Assembly (NCBI GenBank): GCA_022009775.1
Contig: CP091723.1
Coordinates: 223,382 to 287,381 of the forward strand
Source of the DNA: Christensenella sp.
GTDB taxonomy: Bacteria > Bacillota > Clostridia > Christensenellales > CAG-917
Length of the DNA: 64,000 nucleotides
Reading direction: 5' to 3'
Shown: positions 211-52,745 of the stretch, piece after piece
How positions within the stretch are numbered: the stretch's first letter is position 1
Layout: the number at the start of each line of letters is the position of its first letter
The notes under the pieces: generated by a model
What the model was told of the DNA's origin: nothing
Seen by the model: the letters and a program-made list of their open reading frames with translations, nothing else
The model's database searches: none
Made by a program: the position numbers and the translations under genes

Positions 211-284
211 ATGCGCGAATCAAAACCCAACGTACACGCAGTACGTGATTTTGAGTAGCGCGTGCGCTGACGCAGTTGTTCGCC
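211..284 (-). repeat. T-module hairpin (terminator-like family) directly downstream of the McrB-like CDS stop
   Basis: Imperfect long hairpin with apical GTAC-N5-GTAC and the conserved flank GACGCAGTTGTTCGCC. No clear U-tail. Confidence 0.6.
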
Positions 285-296
285 GTTTAGCACATT

Positions 297-1813
297 TTAG
301 AAGAGTTTCTTCAAGCGGTTGATATACTCCTTGCTCTCTTGCATATTCTCTTCACCGAAGAGTTCGCTGAGATAAAGGATAAGACCGTCGATTTCGTCGC
401 GGATGTATGACAAGTTGAGCGATTCGAACTTGCGGAATATCTTGTTGCAAAGCACGTAGTCGAGACCGTCGATTTCTGTTCCGCCGCAACCCACGTATGA
501 AGGAACGAACTCTTTGAGCTGCTTCACGATACGGTTACCAAACGCGAGACGGAAGTGTTCGATGACGTAGTCGTCAAGCAAATTGACCTTGTCGAGAATG
601 TCTTGAGAGACCTTGTGTATCTCCTGCGACTCTTTGAACATCGCTTCAAGGTGCTTGTAGCTGATGAAGATGTTGTCCGCCCACGGCGCGTCGAAAGGCA
701 CACCCTTGCTGTTGATGTTGATAGGCATAGCACGGTCGTAAACCTTATCCGATATGGCAAACGTCGAGTCGTCGTTGTTTGCCGTGCCGATAAACCACAT
801 GTTTTGCGGGAGTCTGAAACGGCCTTTGTCGATATGCTTCGGGTCGTTTGGCCAACCGGACGGAACAAGGTCTACAATCCACTCATCGCGTGACGGCATT
901 TCGAGAATAGACAACATTTCCGCGAAATAGTACTCGACACGCGCGATGTTCATTTCGTCGAGAACGGTGAGATAGATCTGATCGTTCCAAGTTGCCTCGT
1001 ACATTTTTTTGAGCACTTCGGTCTCGTTGAAACGTTTTGTAAATTCGTTGAAGTATCCGAAAAGTTCGGTACGGTCACGCCAAGACGGCTGCACGGACGC
1101 GATAGTTGCGGGGTTGTTCAAGAAAATACCCATAGCGTGCGGCAGGGACGTTTTACCTGTACCGGAAATACCCTGCAAGATCATCAAACGCGACGTGGAC
1201 ATACCTGCAATAAACAAGCGGATGATACGCGGATTGTAGAACAGGCGCATACGCGAGCAAGCGAAGTTGCGGAAACGATCGCACAGCTCGGGGAGCGTGA
1301 TCTCGTCGTCATAGACGGGCGGAACGTAGTTCTCGTAAATCTTGTCGATTTCGGTGAGTTTGTAGAAACGTGACTCGCCTGTTGGCGACTGCTCTTCCTT
1401 CTTTTGTTCGCCTTCTTCCCCTTCTTCGCCTTCATAGTTGCCGATATCGCTGACTCTCATGCCGAGAATACGGTCTTTTTCAGCGGACATTTTGATGATT
1501 TGCTTTTTGAGATTGGCACATTCTTCCACGAGATCCTGCGGCAAAACCTTGGCTTTGGAGAGCCTTGCGAGTTTGCGCAAGCCCAGCGCGATAAGCACGA
1601 TGATTGCGATGATGACAGCAAAAATAAGTATTATGAAAATGATAGCGACAGCCCATTCTCCCGCGCCGAAGTATTGGGTGTAGTTCTTGAAAGCGTCGGC
1701 ATACCCCTCGTTGTAGAAGATATGCAGAAAACCCCAGAATATACTCCCGATCCCTTGTCGTAGAATGCGCCCAAAAACGCTTTGAGAAATTCAAATACAA
1801 GATTGATATTCAT
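297..1813 (-). CDS. McrB-like AAA+ (AAA_5) NTPase with N-terminal TM helix; apparent 1-nt frameshift near 1732-1760 (solid ORF 297-1598)
   Basis: Walker A GISGTGKT; LDEMNIARVEYYFAEMLSILE and FIGTANNDDS resemble McrB DEINRA / GTMNTADRS motifs. Upstream frames give MNINLVFEFL.. plus the hydrophobic stretch AVAIIFIILIFAVIIAIIVLIALGL. Confidence 0.7.
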
Positions 1814-3065: not shown

Positions 3066-3421
3066 GATAAACCTGCCTGATTGATGCTTCTCCGCTTCCG
3101 CCCGAGACTTATTGCCACACACCGCGCCAAAAGCGCAGCCGAGAGATCAGCGAATGACTATTGACGTCGTGCGAGCCATGCTTGTTGCCCTTAAACGGAT
3201 AATATCCGCTTCACTCGCCCGATTTTGCTGAAACGCATAGTTATACAACTATACATATTGTATTGTAACTTATCGCGCGCACGATGTCAACAGCAAAAAT
3301 CGCAAAACCGCCCAAAATCATCCGAAAATCTTCCCCAACCGCCCGATCTCGCCCATATTGCGCGCTTTTTCTCTTTTAAGTGGTTTACGCAGAGTTGCGA
3401 TCATAAGTCGCAACTCTGCGT

Positions 3422-3928
3422 AAAGCCGTCCTTTTGCCACAAACGGAAAGCCTATTCGGGGCGTACTTATAAACGGAATGTGTGACTTCGAAGACGGATT
3501 TGGAGCCGCAAGGCGGCGACCGTATCGAACGCCGAGCTTGACGATAAGTACGAGCGACTGCGCCATGTTGTTGCGTAGCCGGCGCACAAAGCGTGGTGGC
3601 ATAATGAGAGAATGGCACTTATTTATGCGAGTGCTGAGTGTTGTCCCCCGCCACGCGGTCACCGTGGGTTCCCTTGCAAGGGGGAACGGTGATAGGGAAA
3701 ACACCTGAGGAAAGGGGAAAGTTGCATTAAAGTTTGCACACCCAAACCACACTCTCACTTGCAGAACAGAACAAAACAAAAAAATAAATTTAGGGATAAG
3801 GTTTTTGAAAGGGGCTTTATCTCGATAAGGAGAAAAACGATGAAAAAGAAAGGTTTGATTATATCAACAGTCGTCATGGTTGTTGTGCTGATCGCATCTC
3901 TCACCACCGCTACTTACGCTTGGTTTAC
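3422..3928 (+). repeat. Left arm of the ~505-bp inverted repeat. Contains L-element copy 2 (core 3548-3731), 5' UTR/RBS and the first 29 codons of CDS 3840-4862.
   Basis: Reverse complement of 7584-8087. The only differences seen are a T4/T3 run, a 3-nt GCA indel (~3761) and an A7/A8 run. Confidence 0.95.
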
Positions 3929-4862: not shown

Positions 4863-4888
4863 TAAAATATCAAACATAACACAATAGT

Positions 4889-4922
4889 AAAAAATCGCGG
4901 CTCACACGAGCCGCGATTTTTT
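4889..4922. terminator. Bidirectional intrinsic terminator (paralogue A on +, HEPN gene on -)
   Basis: A6-AATCGCGGCTC-acac-GAGCCGCGATT-T6: an 11-bp perfect stem with A- and T-runs. Confidence 0.85.
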
Positions 4923-4957
4923 ATTTATTTACAGATCTTTGCGTTACAGTTTGTTTT

Positions 4958-17456: not shown

Positions 17457-17541
17457 ACCCTGCTCCAAGATAACTATACGCGAGGTTTTCCTTATAAATT
17501 CCCTATCGCATAAATTTTTATATTTCGACGGTTTTCGTCTT

Positions 17542-17624
17542 ATTTCGCGCGCGCGTGCGCGCGCATAAATTCTTTTGTACGCACACACACGCTCACGCGT
17601 AATGCGCGCGCACGCGCGCGAAAT
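17542..17624. repeat. (CG)n-rich 23-25-nt inverted repeat in the spoIIIAF-spoIIIAG spacer
   Basis: ATTT(CG)5T(GC)4AT at 17542-17566 and its complement at 17602-17624 (one CG unit shorter), separated by 35 nt. Confidence 0.9.
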
Positions 17625-17642
17625 TTAAAGCGAATTGCAAAA

Positions 17643-20445: not shown

Positions 20446-21287
20446 AGTCGCACCTTTTCAACGATTTTGCCAATAGGACTTTTTGACAGCGACACCGCAA
20501 AATCGAACGCTTCCGCAAGCGGAGAAAAGCGGGAATCTGACAAAACTTTTTCAACGCTTTCACCGTGCACGGACGCAAACACCCTGACGCCGCAGCGCAC
20601 CACGTCGCATATCGCCGCAACTTCGTTTGGAGAAAACAACTCGTCGGTTACTATAACGTCCGGATTCATCGCCCTTATGCAGTTTTCATACGCAACGACT
20701 TTCGGCACTCCGCTCACAATTTCGCAATCCCCGACGTCAAGATTTGCCGCGCCGTGAGATACGGCGCAAAGTTCGTATCTCTCGTCGATAATCACGACGT
20801 TTTTGTCTTTTGACGCAAGCCTTGCAAGCTCTCTGAGCATCGTGGTCTTGCCCGCTCCCGTAGGTGAAATCACAAGCGTTGACAATACGCCTTCGCTCAT
20901 CACTTCACCGACGATTTCGTCTGCAACGTGCTTTATTTGATGCGGTATACGCACGACAAGATAAGACACGTTTTTCATTGCAAGCAATTTTCCGCCGTCG
21001 GATACGCCTTCACCGCCGATGCCTATACGATACGAGCCGAACGGAATATATCCCTTTTTCATCTCGTCTGATGCGGAATAAACCGACATATTCGTTGCTC
21101 GCATAAGCACGTCGTCGATGTCCTTTTGCGACACGACATACGGCGAGCCGTACGCTTTTGCGACCTTTCTCTCCCCTTTAACAGTGCAATATGTCAAAGG
21201 CCGAGAAATACGCATACGAATTTCGGTGAGATTGTTCTCGTCTCCGACCGCACGCGCAATATTCGCCCCAACCAAATTTTCAAGCAT
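20442..21287 (-). CDS. spoIIIAA: Stage III sporulation protein AA (secretion-type ATPase)
   Basis: Walker A SPTGAGKTT. First gene of the spoIIIA operon. Confidence 0.85.
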   Translation of the reverse strand: MLENLVGANIARAVGDENNLTEIRMRISRPLTYCTVKGERKVAKAYGSPYVVSQKDIDDVLMRATNMSVYSASDEMKKGYIPFGSYRIGIGGEGVSDGGKLLAMKNVSYLVVRIPHQIKHVADEIVGEVMSEGVLSTLVISPTGAGKTTMLRELARLASKDKNVVIIDERYELCAVSHGAANLDVGDCEIVSGVPKVVAYENCIRAMNPDVIVTDELFSPNEVAAICDVVRCGVRVFASVHGESVEKVLSDSRFSPLAEAFDFAVSLSKSPIGKIVEKVRL

Positions 21288-21348
21288 ACAAAAATATATG
21301 ACTTAAAAAGACTTACTTGCACCACCGCAAAATAAGACATTTTTCGCA

Positions 21349-21372
21349 TAAAAAAAGAGCGTCTCCGCTCTT
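21349..21372 (-). terminator. Intrinsic terminator between L-element copy 5 and spoIIIAA
   Basis: Minus strand: AAGAGCG-gaga-CGCUCUU followed by U7. Confidence 0.7.
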
Positions 21373-21411
21373 GATTTCGATTTTATATAAAAATAATTTT
21401 CCGTCGTGTAT

Positions 21412-21700
21412 TTTAATGCAACATTACCCCTTCCCTTCGGGCTTTCCCCTACTTCTCGAAGATAGTGCTTTCTCTTTTTAGCTATACATCGCTCGAAGAT
21501 GGGAAGTCGGCACTCGCATAGACAAGTATCGTCCTCTTGTTATGCCACCACGCTTTGTGCGCCAGGCAGTAGCTAACAACACGGCGCAGTCGCTCGTACA
21601 ACCGTCAAGCTCGGCGCTTATTTGCTCGCCGCCGTTGCGGCTCGTGTTCCGTCTTCAAAGTCGCACAGTCCGTTAATAAGTACGCTCCGAATAAGTTTTC
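21412..21700 (-). repeat. L-element copy 5 (subtype 2; core 21412-21599)
   Basis: Conserved blocks TTTAATGCAAC.., ..GGCACTCGCATAG.., TTATGCCACCACGCTTTGTGCGCC..GGCGCAGTCGCTCGTAC. The variable hairpin is replaced. Confidence 0.85.
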
Positions 21701-21708
21701 ATTTCAGG

Positions 21709-21826
21709 TGTGGGTGTCCCGCCCAATTAAAACACCAAGCCGACAATCTTGCGAAATTGCGGTAGGGGTTTTTATCCGTGACTGAACTAATAGCAAAGAT
21801 TTTCGGCGCGGTTAGCAGAACAAAAG
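21709..21826 (-). repeat. Module-2 repeat, copy b
   Basis: Aligns with 10190-10312. Confidence 0.8.
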
Positions 21827-21893
21827 CCTAATGCAGCTCTCGGTGTTGCTTGCAAGCAAGCGATGCCGTTGCCGCCATGACGGCTTTTGTTCG

Positions 21894-21940
21894 GATGAAG
21901 AGCGAGAAAAAGCTCTTGCAGGGCAACCACTAAATTTTTT
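21894..21940 (-). repeat. Truncated T-module (only one stem arm plus the U-tail flank)
   Basis: GATGAAGAGCGAGAAAAAGCTCTTGCAGGGCAACC then diverges. Compare 22053-22090. Confidence 0.6.
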
Positions 21941-21956
21941 TATATAAGTCAAGAGT

Positions 21957-21999
21957 CTGAAACAGATGAAGAACAAGGAAAAGTTATTCGCTGTTTCAG
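21957..21999 (-). repeat. 'Empty' T-module: both conserved flanks with no central stem-loop, closed by a 9-bp outer stem
   Basis: CTGAAACAG-ATGAAGAACAAGGAAA|AGTTATTCG-CTGTTTCAG. Confidence 0.7.
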
Positions 22000-22034
22000 A
22001 GTATTTGAGCTCGAAGTTTAGATAAAGAACTGTT

Positions 22035-22159
22035 ATCTCGCGTATAAAACGGATGAAGAGCGCGAAAAAAGCCCTTGCAGGGCAACCCTAACGTACTAAT
22101 CGTACGTGAGTTGTAATGCAAGGGCTTTGACAAAGCTATTCGCCGTTTTATACGCGAGA
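22035..22159 (-). terminator. T-module / efp intrinsic terminator with a 17-bp outer stem that includes the efp stop codon
   Basis: Inner stem AAAGCCCUUGCA..UGCAAGGGCUUU followed by U-run. Outer arms 22036-22052 and 22143-22159 are perfectly complementary. Confidence 0.8.
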
Positions 22160-22711
22160 CATGTATTCGCCGGTGCGAGTATCAATACGTATAGTATCAC
22201 CCTCGTTGACAAACATAGGAACTTGAAGTTCATAGCCTGTTTCGACGGTTGCGGGTTTGGTTGCATTGGTGGCGGTGTTGCCTGCAACTGCGGGTTCGCA
22301 AACGGTGATGAGAAGTTCGACAAAGTTTGGCGGTTCAACGGAGAACGGTGCGCCTTGGAAGAACTTCATGGTGACGTTCATGTTCTCTTTGACAAAGTTG
22401 AGTGCGTCTTCCACTTGGCTGTGGTTGAGCGGAATTTGTTCGTAAGTGTCTGCGTCCATGAAATAATAGAATTCTCCGTCGTTGTAGAGATATTCCATCG
22501 TCTTGGTCTCGATGTGAGCAAGTTCAAATTTTTCGGTGGGGTTGAACGTTTGTTCAAGCACTGCGCCGGTGACGACGTTTTTCATCTTCATACGGACGAA
22601 AGCTGCGCCCTTGCCCGGTTTGACGTGCAAGAAATCGACGACGGTCATAATCTTGTTGTCATAAAGGAAAGTTACGCCCTTTCTCAAATCGCCTGCCATA
22701 ATTTGTGCCAT
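22148..22711 (-). CDS. efp: Elongation factor P
   Basis: 187 aa. ..[16 protein letters not shown].. is the canonical EF-P loop. Confidence 0.95.
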
Positions 22712-32301: not shown

Positions 32302-32505
32302 GGTTTACCTTCCTAGTAATATATAATATTAGTATTGAAAATTATACCACAAACAAGACGCGTTTTCAAGAGAAAAGAAAGAGAAAAATTATCGTATATT
32401 TTTTGACAAGGTTAGATAGCCGAATTTGAATTAATAATTAATAATGAACAATTAACAATTAATTTTTTTAGTAGGATAACACGCAACATAAAAACGCGAT
32501 ATTGA

Positions 32506-32650
32506 GATGAAAAACAAGAAAACACCCATCCAAAACAAAACCCAACGTACATTGGGTACGTGATTTTGGAGCGGATGGGTGTTGTAAGGAACGAAGTGAC
32601 GGAATAGCGATTGTTACGCTTTGCGTCAATCGCGTCCGATGTTATTCGCT
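32506..32650 (-). terminator. T-module (variant) terminator, second of two after the M16 peptidase gene
   Basis: Minus strand: ACACCCAUCC..GGAUGGGUGU stem with apical GUAC..GUAC, then UUUUCUUGUUUUUCAUC. Confidence 0.7.
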
Positions 32651-32670
32651 ATTGGCGTTTTCTAAAAAAT

Positions 32671-32836
32671 GCGCTAAATAGATGAATGACGCGAAAGTGC
32701 CCCGAGAATGACAACCCTAATGTGCATGTAGTACATGAGTTGGCAGGCTCAGGGCACTGTAAGGAACGAAGTGACGGAATAGCGATTGTTACGAAGTCAA
32801 TCGCGTCCAAAGTCAGTCGCTATTTAGCGCGTTTTT
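32671..32836 (-). terminator. T-module whose outer arm pairs with the last codons of the M16 peptidase CDS
   Basis: GCGCTAAATAG (32671-32681) is complementary to CTATTTAGCGC (32820-32830, inside the CDS). Apical CAACCCTAATGTGCATGTAGTACATGAGTTG. Confidence 0.7.
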
Positions 32837-34079
32837 GATGTCGATGTCGTCGAAACGAGATACAATACTACTGCACACGTTCGTGAAATCAAAGATTTCA
32901 CGCGAAGCACGCAAAACGTCTTCGGCGGTAGTTTGGTCTATCATTGATATGCAGGTATCGAAGTCATAAAGTTGTCCGGTTTGAACGGCGTGCGCACCGA
33001 AAGTTCGCATCATTGCGGAAGTACTTTCCTGCCCGAGAACAAGCGACGTTTTGAGTTGTTGTTTGCCTTTTTCGAGTTCCTGCTCACTCACGCCTTTTTC
33101 GAGCAAAAGATCTATTTCTTCCCTGATTGCGTGCACCGCTTTCAAGGCGTTTTCGGGGCTTGTTGACGTGTAGATTATAAAGGCACCGTTCTTCTCGTAT
33201 GCGGACGGATAGCCGTAAATCGTATAGCAAAGTCCGTGCTTTTCTCTGACGCTTTGGAAAAGTCTTGACGACATTTCCATGCTGAAAATTATGCACATAA
33301 GTTGCATAGCGACTCCCCTGTCGTCGTTGTACGGATAGCACGGGAACGCAAATGCGATATGGCTTTGTTCGATGTCTTTTTTCTTCTTGCAGGACGTCGA
33401 ATGTTCGGGACGCACGTTGACAGGTTGCGCGTCGTATTTCACGCCTTTTTCAAACTTGCTCTCGAAATATTTTTCCACGAGTGAAACGGCTTGCTCGACG
33501 GTCATATTGCCGGCAATGGAAACAATCGTGTTTGGTGCGACGTAATGCTTTGCGTGATACGCTCGCAAGGTCTCGCTCGTCATAGATTTCAACGTCTTTT
33601 TCGTGCCGAGAATGGTCTTTTCAAGCGTGCAACCTTTGAAAAAGTTGCTCATAAGGCGTTCAAGACACAAATCGTCGGGGGGTATCTTCACTCTCGTTGA
33701 TTTCTTCGATGACAACCCTGCGCTCCTTTTCGAGTTCGATAGGGTCGAATGCGGGATTGAAATACATATCCGAAAGCACGTCTGCGCATTTTTCAACGTT
33801 CGTATCCAACGAAACAGTGTGAAAACACGTATAACTTTTTGCCGTATACGCATTGATTTGCGCACCGATAGAGTCAATTTCGTTGACGATATCGAAACTG
33901 GAACGAGTTTTCGTGCCTTTGAAAACCATGTGTTCTATGAAGTGAGATATTCCGTTGATTTCGGGAGTTTCACGCACTACGCCTGCGCCGACGAATACGC
34001 CGAGCGCAACCGACCTGACGGCTGTGTTCTGAACAAATACAAGTTTAAGCCCGCTTGGGAAATTTATCATTTTTTGCAT
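32813..34079 (-). CDS. M16-family (pitrilysin/insulinase-like) zinc peptidase (frameshift in a G6 run near 33683)
   Basis: HFIEH zinc motif (HxxEH) and EEINESED. The two ORF fragments are contiguous. Confidence 0.8.
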
Positions 34080-34855: not shown

Positions 34856-35234
34856 ACTAAACGCTATATTGATTTTATAACAAGAAAGGGCCGCTCTTCA
34901 CAGGCGGGAGCGTACTTGTTGTACGTGACTGTCTGTGAAGTGGCTCTGCCGTAGTTATTCTCCCCACTGTCCCCCCTATATCCTAAACGCAATATTTAGA
35001 TGAAGAACAAGGAAACACCGCCAAACACAGACAAGAGTGTACTTGCTGTACATGACTGTTTGTGGTGGCGGTGTTGACGCAGTTATTCACCCCAACATTC
35101 TACATACCCTAAACGCACAGTTTAGATGAAGAACAAGAAAGAGCCCCTTGAACAGCAACCCTAATGTACATTTAGTACATGAGTTGATGAGCAAGGGACT
35201 CTGCCGAAGTTGTTCGCTAAACTGTGCGTTTAGG
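34856..35234 (-). terminator. Three tandem T-modules downstream of pnp (approximately 34856-34980, 34981-35107 and 35108-35234)
   Basis: Each unit is CTAAACGCnnnnTTTAGATGAAGAACAAG(G)AAA + a long stem with different but self-complementary sequence + apical GTAC..GTAC + G(A/C)CG(C/A/T)AGTT(A/G)TTC. On the minus strand each stem is followed by UUUCUUGUUCUUCAUC. Confidence 0.8.
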
Positions 35235-47757: not shown

Positions 47758-47783
47758 CCCTACAACTGGTACTTGTCGAGTAT

Positions 47784-48185
47784 TTTAATGCAACATTACC
47801 CCTTCCCTTCGGGCTTTCCCCTATTGCAAAAATAATGACATTTCTCTATCAAAAAAACATCGTTTGCAAAAGGGTAACTCGGCACTCACATAGATATGTA
47901 TCGTTCACTCGTTATGCCACTGCGCTTTGTGCGCCAGGCAGTAGCCAACAATACGGCGCAGTCGCTTGTACTTCACACACAAGGGTTCCCGCGCGTCAAA
48001 AACAAGCGAACTTGTGTTTGAGTTATAAGATGAAAGAGCAGTTTTTTTGCGCGTGGGATAAAGGAACACCAAGACCAAAATGCAAACGGTTGTATCTTGT
48101 TGCAATCGTTGCAATAGGGCTTGTGTGTGACGTAAGTTCGGCGCTCAAAGGCTCGCCGCCTTGCAGCTCGAAATTCCGTCTCTAT
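47784..48185 (-). repeat. L-element copy 6 (subtype 2) with a ~150-nt expansion helix (core 47784-47971)
   Basis: Core blocks are conserved. After ..GCGCAGTCGCTTGTAC, a stem TCACACACAAG (47973-47983) / CTTGTGTGTGA (48121-48131) encloses extra sequence. The distal conserved part (..GCTCGCCGCCTTGCAGCTCG..CCGTCTC) then resumes. Confidence 0.8.
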
Positions 48186-48188
48186 AAC

Positions 48189-48227
48189 AAAACGTTCGGT
48201 TTGAAAACTCAAACCGAACGTTTTTTA
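48189..48227. terminator. Bidirectional intrinsic terminator (yajC on -, also competent on +)
   Basis: AACGTTCGGTTTGA-aaac-TCAAACCGAACGTT followed by T6 on the + strand. UUUUGUUAU follows it on the - strand. Confidence 0.85.
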
Positions 48228-52490: not shown

Positions 52491-52745
52491 TTTAATGCAA
52501 CTTTCCCCTTTCCTCAGGTGTTTTCCCTATCATCGTTCCCCCTTGCAAGGGAACCCACGGTGACCGCGTGGCGGGGGACAACACTCGGTCGAGACATAAC
52601 TTGCGCCATTTCTCTTATTATGCCACTTCGCCTGCGTGGCAGCTACGCAACAAGATTCCACGCATTCTTGTACTTTTCGTCAAGTCCGACGCTCGATTTG
52701 CTCGCCGCCGTTGCGGCTCGTGTTCCGTCTTCGAAATTGCACATT
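52491..52745 (-). repeat. L-element copy 7 in the ruvA-ruvB intergenic spacer (core 52491-52673)
   Basis: Conserved blocks are present. Carries the compensatory TGCGTGG/CCACGCA helix variant. Confidence 0.9.

Follow-up and report, generated by a model that had tools for sequence, protein, structure and literature searches.

We describe an abundant repeat of uncultured gut Clostridia, the T-module, which has not been described before and whose two outer arms pair with each other to form a helix of about 17 bp at gene ends. The distal arm complements whatever 17 nt precede the conserved core of the repeat, in agreement with the earlier note, which held that this arm was either copied from its target or selected to pair with it. 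The arms resemble terminal inverted repeats with a family consensus; complementarity alone is strictly kept, and because of this the arm sequence differs from locus to locus and is each locus's own. At efp the distal arm tracks native codons allele by allele, so that the description of an inverted copy of the gene's own 3' end holds there. As a general account of the arms as locus-specific inverted copies, that description proved only partly right: elsewhere in the window (the whole 64-kb stretch of DNA analysed here) the M16 peptidase arm is the family consensus itself, and pnp has a variant of it.

The element family and its outer helix

A search profile built from 27 copies was run with nhmmer over the window and loci fetched from public genomes and returned 73 T-module copies, 45 of them full length and drawn from about 30 gut Clostridia genomes. 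The hosts are all uncultured Clostridia bins, mostly from the gut, and eight copies lie in the window. An initial scan of genomes with a 17-nt pattern was unspecific, with about 40 of 120 loci being real copies. The element is non-coding and interspersed, and its 93-nt core is conserved and structured, with a rod-like fold. In the sense direction, the proximal arm is followed by CGAATAAC, a short internal loop and a G+C-rich stem in which the sequence is free and pairing is always kept; the return strand of the stem leads to UUUCUUGUUCUUCAUC and the distal arm. The conserved inner part of the core reads CAACUCAYGUAC-loop-GUACRUUAGGGUUG, the core ends are CGAATAAC and GTTCTTCATC, and the hairpin contains conserved internal loops. 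Module interiors may differ where the arms are identical (L121 versus L123). We also observed a sub-module of about 50 nt (GACGCGATTGAC..CGCTATTCCGTCACTTCGTTCCTTA) nested in the 5' internal loop of some modules, in the window at about 32758-32807 and at 32590-32645, and in L020, L027, L050 and L177; it is missing from the same M16 module in the same-species contig L159.

The T-module is short, non-coding and multi-copy, and its arms are terminal inverted repeats with a family consensus (AAAANYGCGATATTKAG / CTMAATAGCGCRNTTTT, with a locus-specific outer portion), as in miniature inverted-repeat elements (MITEs). We found no sign of a direct target-site duplication: repeats of 2-5 nt at the arm boundaries, TA included, are no commoner than in permuted controls, and the stop codon with its complement accounts for the frequent TA..TA at the helix ends. 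The within-species differences (E versus A, and among W, B and C, see below) are replacements or stackings, not simple insertions. A search of the window against Rfam returned only four tRNAs at the gathering score, and the module regions had no credible match at E-values up to 10; on both thresholds we rejected the T-module as a known RNA family. Inspected by eye, the conserved loops were unconvincing as a K-turn or hammerhead. A strict two-gap pattern search found no copy among viral contigs, and on this result a phage origin was set aside. Literature searches, both on the motif strings and on descriptions of an element of this kind, turned up nothing relevant.

All three arm pairs singled out in the earlier note were recovered where it had placed them, with 17/17 (efp), 18/18 (pnp) and 16/17 (M16) complementary positions. 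A scan of the 64-kb window for inverted repeats with arms of at least 15 nt lying at least 60 nt apart returned six, of which four flank these modules. The flanks of the 45 full copies pair in fixed register with the core, over a median of 17 nt and typically 17-20 nt, and their mean anchored arm score of 11.6 compares with 3.5 for cross-locus arm pairings and 1.3 for shuffled flanks, so that the complementarity extends across T-module copies, a point which the earlier note had proposed to check. When 46 arm pairs were aligned without gaps, 86% of cells were paired, changes were two-sided in 19/20 arm pairs, and the covariation score was 0.57, against 0.154 in shuffled pairs (0/500) and about 0.1 when partners are slid. 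Chance as the source of arm pairing is excluded. Pairing is at least 0.79 at positions 0-16, position 7 (0.47) excepted, where a mismatch is conserved. The outer edge of the helix is sharp, with pairing of 0.62, 0.50 and 0.32 at positions 17-19 and background levels thereafter. Across 34 loci no complementarity was left over past position ~19, which rules out decayed longer inverted copies.

The view that the arms are unrelated between loci, and hence not fixed terminal inverted repeats, did not survive the alignment, which revealed a clear family consensus with a mismatch built in. In the sense direction the consensus is TAAAAC-Y-GCGCTATTKAG / CTMAATATCGC-R-GTTTTA; on the plus strand, the left arm is AAAA-N-Y-GCG-A-TATT-K-AG and the right arm CT-M-AATA-G-CGC-R-N-TTTT. 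Arm positions 0-6 and 8-11 are conserved between loci. The conserved mismatch is found in about half of the arm pairs: near-consensus arms retain it, whereas diverged arms are Watson-Crick there (mean divergence, 0.74 versus 3.6; p = 2e-7), and it is gone in 22 of the 25 arms having at least two consensus differences. Where it has been resolved with a consensus base kept, the gene-side base (C-G) was kept 11 times and the distal base (A-T) never, a bias that fits copying from the gene side outward into the distal arm. G-U pairs are few in the arms and have no strand bias (105 versus 105), which fits complementarity made at the DNA level; they do not tell which strand a functional RNA would be read from. 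Of the two strands, the antisense is the more stable by a small margin. Some modules lack the distal arm entirely (L159 pnp and L171 efp), which means that loci can do without the helix, at least for some time.

Gene ends at efp, pnp and the M16 peptidase

The efp, pnp and M16 peptidase genes all lie on the minus strand, with modules downstream of each. The features at efp are as follows:

22148 to 22711, minus strand: efp (EF-P) CDS, ending ..GEYMSRV*, stop codon at 22148-22150
22143 to 22159, minus strand: efp proximal arm, sense TCT CGC GTA TAA AACGG, the last three codons, the stop codon and 5 nt
22053 to 22142, minus strand: efp module core, sense CGAATAGC.., with an inner hairpin at 22068-22128 and the U-tract TTTTTTCGCGCTCTTCAT (nhmmer and fold)
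22036 to 22052, minus strand: efp distal arm, sense CCGTTTTATACGCGAGA, a perfect inverted copy of the gene end (0 mismatches; shuffled best, 5)
22006 to 22030, minus strand: fossil, an older module 3' remnant GTTCTTTATC and an older distal arm CTAAACTTCGAGCTCA
21948 to 22005, minus strand: fossil minimal element, with proximal remnant TCTGAAACAG, core ends CGAATAAC-TTTTCC-TTGTTCTTCATC and old distal arm CTGTTTCAGACTCTTGAC
21893 to 21930, minus strand: sense 3' half of a further module, adjoining a repeat that begins CGAACAAAAGCC.. at 21892

The two efp arms, each 17 nt long and 90 nt apart, are 100% complementary, confirming the perfect reverse complement of 22143-22159 at 22036-22052, and the proximal arm can be read through the S-R-V codons and TAA to 5 nt beyond, as had been claimed. 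Folding, one of the checks that the earlier note had proposed, gave a single rod for the sense RNA of the element (-69.7 kcal/mol; z = -12.2; 0/200 shuffles as stable). The GEYMSRV* C-terminus is native to efp and is conserved in about 120 homologues. In the efp orthologues that lack a module (10 loci), the gene end has no inverted copy, with best matches of 5-7 mismatches that equal those of shuffled queries; these genes have ordinary terminators starting 17-27 nt past the stop codon. Neither arm is present there, as against the case of such orthologues already containing both, which the earlier note held would refute its reading.

Comparison of efp alleles revealed one rule over all types: the 17 nt before the core, whatever their sequence, are complemented by the distal arm. 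The types are as follows:

Type A: gene end G TCA AGA GTC TGA AACGG; TCAAGAGTCTGAAACGG paired with CCGTTTCAGACTCTTGAC
Type B: gene end ..GTC TAA AACAG; ..TCTAAAACAG paired with CTGTTTTAGACTCTTGAC; L153 is a one-mismatch intermediate
Type W (window): gene end TCT CGC GTA TAA AACGG; TCTCGCGTATAAAACGG paired with CCGTTTTATACGCGAGA
Types C, D and others: stop codon followed by a consensus-like arm, with a matching arm; just the stop codon and 1-2 coding bases pair

Alleles that spell S-R-V-stop differently (TCTCGCGTATAA, TCAAGAGTCTGA, TCAAGAGTCTAA) each have an exactly matching inverted copy; they differ at 4-6 synonymous or stop positions, and the distal arm follows each. Between the arms of alleles W, A and B and the inverted gene end there are 0-1 mismatches, as in template-switch products. 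Type B equals type D minus 8 nt of arm, and past this apparent 8-nt difference, 9 new bases are complementary to the coding sequence. Read from the sequences, this suggests that a deletion put the core beside the efp stop codon and that the helix was then rebuilt from coding sequence.

Much of this variation occurs within a single species. Overall identity to the window is 98.5% for contigs L153, L155, L159, L160 and L177, with 540 nt of efp matching at 98-100%; among them and the window the last three efp codons and the stop have three synonymous spellings (W, B and C), each with its own matching distal arm. Divergence among W, B and C begins exactly past ..TACATG (window 22148-22159 region). 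The distal arms of these same-species alleles differ at 8 or more positions, and each is perfectly matched. From the gene outward, the distal arms are arranged as follows:

Window: W, C, B, then a W-like half module
L153: B, W, C, B
L177: C, B
L159: B, then a W-like half module

The fossil arm in 22006-22030 matches the efp end and arm of allele C (TGA GCGCGC..TTTAG) found in the same species (L160, L177 and L153), and the old distal arm in 21948-22005 mirrors efp allele B/A (G TCA AGA GTC TGA AACAG). In a sister species (about 83% identical), the region downstream of efp is a variable-number array of units consisting of a module 3' end and a distal arm, and in some strains and not others a new module lies between efp and the old module. 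Type C-like ends are also found in contigs whose efp is just 63-82% identical at the nucleotide level. To judge from such sequences, the within-species efp alleles may be old, or may be imports from other species by recombination, and speed is thus no safe argument for copying. We also observed, in L137-L142, L147, L152 and L161, arrays downstream of efp of a unit of about 75 nt, a module 3' end and distal arm of one type followed by a module 3' end and arm of another type, with copy numbers that vary among strains of one species.

The other modules with assigned arms in the window are as follows:

35217 to 35234, minus strand: pnp proximal arm, CC TAA ACGCACAGTTTAG, stop codon at 35230-35232
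35126 to 35216, minus strand: pnp module core, the window's best profile match (E = 1.6e-20)
35108 to 35125, minus strand: pnp distal arm, perfect over 18 nt
34857 to 35090, minus strand: two further tandem modules, cores at 34998-35088 and 34879-34960
32820 to 32836, minus strand: M16 proximal arm, AAAAACGCGCTAAATAG, of consensus type, inside the ORF (K N A L N S)
32682 to 32819, minus strand: M16 module core (profile match), with a nested sub-module of about 50 nt at about 32758-32807
32665 to 32681, minus strand: M16 distal arm (arm complementarity)
32490 to 32661, minus strand: second, tandem module downstream of M16, with the same sub-module and consensus-type arms
220 to 299, minus strand: truncated module (profile match), proximal arm at 283-299, whose outermost 3 nt are the stop codon of ORF 297-1598

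At pnp, the perfect complementarity of 35108-35125 and 35217-35234 was borne out, with the stop codon inside the arm. The pairing can be extended to 27 nt at 89%, which looks like a local exception. The window's arm (CCTAAACGCACAGTTTAG) departs from the consensus arm at two positions and is matched perfectly by a new distal arm, whereas the same-species L159 (98.5% identity) keeps a consensus-type pnp arm (CCTAAACGCACTATTTAG). The arms that follow the tandem cores, at 34982-34999 and 34857-34872, pair in part with the pnp end, and the former is a fossil that matches the older consensus-type pnp arm of L159, canonical mismatch included.

The M16 locus presents the opposite case. Its arms (32665-32681 / 32820-32836) are complementary over 17 nt at 94%, the one mismatch being as noted before, and the proximal arm is wholly coding, since ORF 32813-33877 reads through it as ..KNALNSD*. 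The mismatch results from a synonymous substitution, AAT>AAC, seen against a same-species strain whose contig has a 17/17 helix. The proximal arm is the family consensus and encodes the last seven codons. This tail is common only to relatives at least 84% identical; more distant relatives have other tails of similar length. Because the arm is the consensus and the tail is confined to those close relatives, the gene end derives from the element, so that the proposed direction of copying is reversed here, with the gene borrowing its tail from the element. Loss of a former M16 stop codon at the edge of the arm was considered and rejected; the similar length of the homologues' tails makes replacement of the tail by the arm likelier.

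The position of the stop codon recurs across the family. A sense-side ORF of at least 190 codons is present in about 28 of the 45 full copies, whereas an ORF of at least 100 codons ends there from the other side in only 3; the T-module is thus downstream of the gene and in the same orientation. At most of the ~28 long-ORF loci, 15-21 nt separate the start of the stop codon, usually TAA, from the core, and the codon lies in the outermost base pairs of the helix. Even in consensus-type arms, the outer 4-6 bp pair with the gene's own stop codon, be it TAA or TGA. The element carries stops of its own: a TAA marks the arm edge, position -3/-4 has TAG or TGA, and position +4 has TAA or TAG. We also observed that all three frames are closed inside about 25 nt of the element, such that an entering ORF terminates in at most 8 codons. 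A few ORFs pass through the arm to later stops, and one database protein (P0001) reads across the element as SRVWNGE*.

Origin of the arms

We give an even chance to a model in which the T-module is a mobile terminator similar to MITEs or SPRITE, with a basal helix maintained jointly by selection and by fold-back (template-switch) copying from the gene side. A change in the gene-side arm would be followed by rewriting of the distal arm, which is free of constraint, as the reverse complement of the changed arm. The gene-side changes observed include point mutation, the apparent 8-nt difference that places the core beside the efp stop, and allele replacement. The likeliest route would be fold-back DNA synthesis (intramolecular template switching, or quasipalindrome mutation), after which selection, favouring a helix no shorter than about 17 bp, would trim and hold the product; the efp distal arm that mirrors S-R-V-stop would arise by such copying and selection. 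Modules turn over: interiors are exchanged, new modules arrive beside the gene, and old 3' ends and distal arms stay behind in a downstream stack. Template switching is a documented creator and repairer of perfect hairpins and produces multi-base “compensation” (PMC8794818). The loss of the mismatch with divergence and the 11:0 bias lend it indirect support. We found no rooted ancestor-descendant pair with a single multi-base conversion; the same-species alleles differ at many arm positions and are unrooted. Template switching alone does not predict the sharp 17-bp edge or the end of the helix at the stop codon, and to account for them, a functional constraint on length or insertion by a ruler-like mechanism has to be assumed as well.

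A functional RNA or DNA stem maintained by point mutations and stepwise compensation, with no templated copying, would yield strong covariation and a sharply set helix length, as a functional requirement predicts. One-mismatch intermediates such as L153 A.C and L147 G.U, which look like ordinary point mutation, and the AAC of the window's M16 arm likewise agree with selection alone. We nevertheless consider it unlikely. Arms are mostly perfect or carry the family mismatch only, with G-U pairs rare and free of strand bias; same-species distal arms differ at 8 or more positions yet match perfectly; the mismatch is lost in 22/25 diverged arms and resolved 11:0 to the gene-side base; and 9 new coding-complementary bases follow the apparent 8-nt efp difference. 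The sharp edge could instead reflect insertion itself, if an enzyme or process copied about 17 nt of target in inverted form at or beside the stop codon, in which case the arms would date from insertion. Such a ruler is in keeping with the constant helix length and the lack of complementarity past its edge, with the absence of a direct target duplication, with the outer 4-6 bp that pair with the gene's own TAA or TGA even in consensus-type arms, and with new modules recurring beside the gene while older distal arms are displaced downstream. It appears improbable, since unrelated genes and genomes share conserved inner 11-12 nt of the arms, which hence are not target derived, and since no clean filled/empty pair was found, the within-species difference between E and A being a replacement. 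In addition, we know of no bacterial mechanism by which a target would be duplicated in inverted form.

Insertion into the loop of a pre-existing terminator hairpin, which would make the arms its old stem, was suggested by the plain terminators of the window, perfect 16-17-bp hairpins with A/T runs whose length and style are like those of the arms; many arms, too, start with an A run and finish with a T run. At efp it is ruled out by the module-less orthologues, whose unrelated terminators lie 17-27 nt past the stop with no inverted copy, and the efp arms consist of native codons and covary with their spelling. Elsewhere it is very improbable, given that arm positions 8-11 and 0-6 are conserved between loci and that the plain hairpins do not abut stop codons, unlike the arms. 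A further reading is a self-installing terminator cassette, which taken as a whole we regard as unlikely. A module would arrive beside a stop codon, and the same event would copy a fixed ~17 nt of the gene end in inverted form by fold-back synthesis, giving an inverted target duplication; repeated arrivals would stack the old distal arms downstream as a dated record of former gene ends; and the archived inverted copies, copied back, would rewrite synonymously the last codons of essential genes. The copy-back step is suggested by the occurrence of three S-R-V-stop spellings in one species whose efp is otherwise 98-100% identical.

Predicted terminator function, related systems and neighbouring repeats

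On the sense strand, the T-module has the features of an intrinsic terminator, a G+C-rich stem of 9-12 bp followed by the U-rich UUUUUUCGCG (efp) or UUUCUUGUUCUU (consensus); the tail on the antisense strand is not U-rich. In the efp core, a terminator-like prediction falls at 22083-22071. The inner hairpin and U-rich tail therefore read as the predicted intrinsic terminator of the upstream gene. A clamp enclosing the stop codon, which the earlier note had suggested, is half right: the stop codon does lie inside the helix, but the helix cannot form in terminated transcripts because the distal arm is 3' of the predicted terminator. The outer helix could form solely in read-through RNA, antisense RNA or single-stranded DNA. 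We infer that the element may act as a compound, polar terminator and 3'-end structure in which the inner hairpin stops sense transcription; the outer helix might be the base of a backup or bidirectional terminator, or an RNase III-type duplex, and a DNA hairpin is a further candidate role. Plain hairpins are also present in the window at 3384-3424, 4888-4923 and 48189-48224, with perfect stems of 16-17 bp and loops of 4-7 nt; their stem length and style are like those of the module arms, and two of the three have A/T runs at the stem ends.

The closest known systems are the pneumococcal SPRITE and MITEs such as Correia. Like the T-module, SPRITE is a small, non-coding, multi-copy Firmicute repeat with a terminator-like fold, AAAA/TTTT ends, no detectable target duplication and a strong enrichment near gene 3' ends (PMC3049150). 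Compared by description, SPRITE differs in having an 18-bp duplex with a U-rich tract and just 4-nt terminal inverted repeats, and no locus-specific covarying 17-bp helix, stop overlap or coding mirroring is reported for it. Correia/NEMIS and other bacterial MITEs end in fixed terminal repeats and duplicate their target directly, as TA in the case of Correia; the T-module, unlike elements of this type, has no direct duplication, and its arms vary by locus while remaining complementary within each locus. Correia/NEMIS and other bacterial MITEs are similar to the T-module in their size of about 100-150 bp, their location at gene ends and the pairing of their terminal inverted repeats in the transcript, and those of the Correia/NEMIS type have termination effects and undergo RNase III cleavage at the paired repeats (PMC10969869). 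Template-switch (quasipalindrome) mutations share with the arms the copying of a reverse complement, multi-base compensation and perfect stems (PMC8794818). Template switching is, however, a general mutational process and not an element, whereas in the T-module it would recur on one family, take in coding sequence and stop at about 17 bp.

Two further comparisons concern structure at gene ends. Integron attC sites are imperfect hairpins at gene 3' ends that keep their structure with varied sequence, often overlap the stop codon and have the core sites RYYYAAC ... GTTRRRY. The T-module core ends in GAATAAC / GTTCTTC, which fails at the YYY and RRR positions, and we rejected attC identity. The T-module core is also strongly conserved, unlike attC, and the flanking genes are housekeeping genes and not cassettes: modules follow efp, pnp, the M16 peptidase and other chromosomal genes in conserved synteny. 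Bidirectional intrinsic terminators resemble the consensus arms in having an A tract, a stem and a U tract in both orientations; they differ in that the “loop” of the T-module is a 93-nt conserved structured module holding its own terminator, and in that efp-type arms have no U tract. The T-module family is set apart from SPRITE and Correia-type MITEs by its locus-specific yet complementary arms, by the absence of a direct duplication, and by its overlap with stop codons and, at efp, with native codons.

The T-module would be a widespread, unannotated class of 3'-end element in Clostridia that are abundant in the human gut yet uncultured. It bears on gene calling, as a repeat provides or overlaps stop codons and C-terminal tails, on terminator prediction, and on assembly, as many contigs break at the elements. 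If the arms are kept by fold-back copying, they would constitute a natural and highly replicated system, with hundreds of loci per genome in many gut-metagenome strains, in which template-switch mutation could be watched as it makes and repairs hairpins and imposes synonymous change on the last codons of conserved genes. A 17-bp helix placed exactly at the stop codon also raises the question of coupling among translation termination, transcription termination and mRNA 3'-end processing.

Several other repeats accompany the modules. The non-coding region 21281-21895 between efp and the next gene contains further interspersed repeats, with no ORF noted and no credible Rfam match. One of these, about 190 nt long, has at least six more copies in the window; repeats of this kind also lie at 24-113, 3446-3634, 7873-8064, 9907-10090, 47775-47971 and 52678-52743. 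A second element, starting CGAACAAAAGCCGTCAT.., is a hairpin (CGAACAAAAGCC ... GGCTTTTGTTCTG) fused exactly to the ..CTTCATC end of modules, where it replaces the distal arm (window 21892/21893, L159 1331, L171 and L056). Many public contigs stop inside or just past the module downstream of efp (L121-L124, L131, L175 and others), and T-module repeats probably break short-read assemblies. Also present in the window are a 33-nt imperfect inverted repeat rich in alternating GC (..CGCGCGCGCGTGCGCGCGC..) at 17534-17634 and a cluster of four tRNA genes on the minus strand at 12428-13220.
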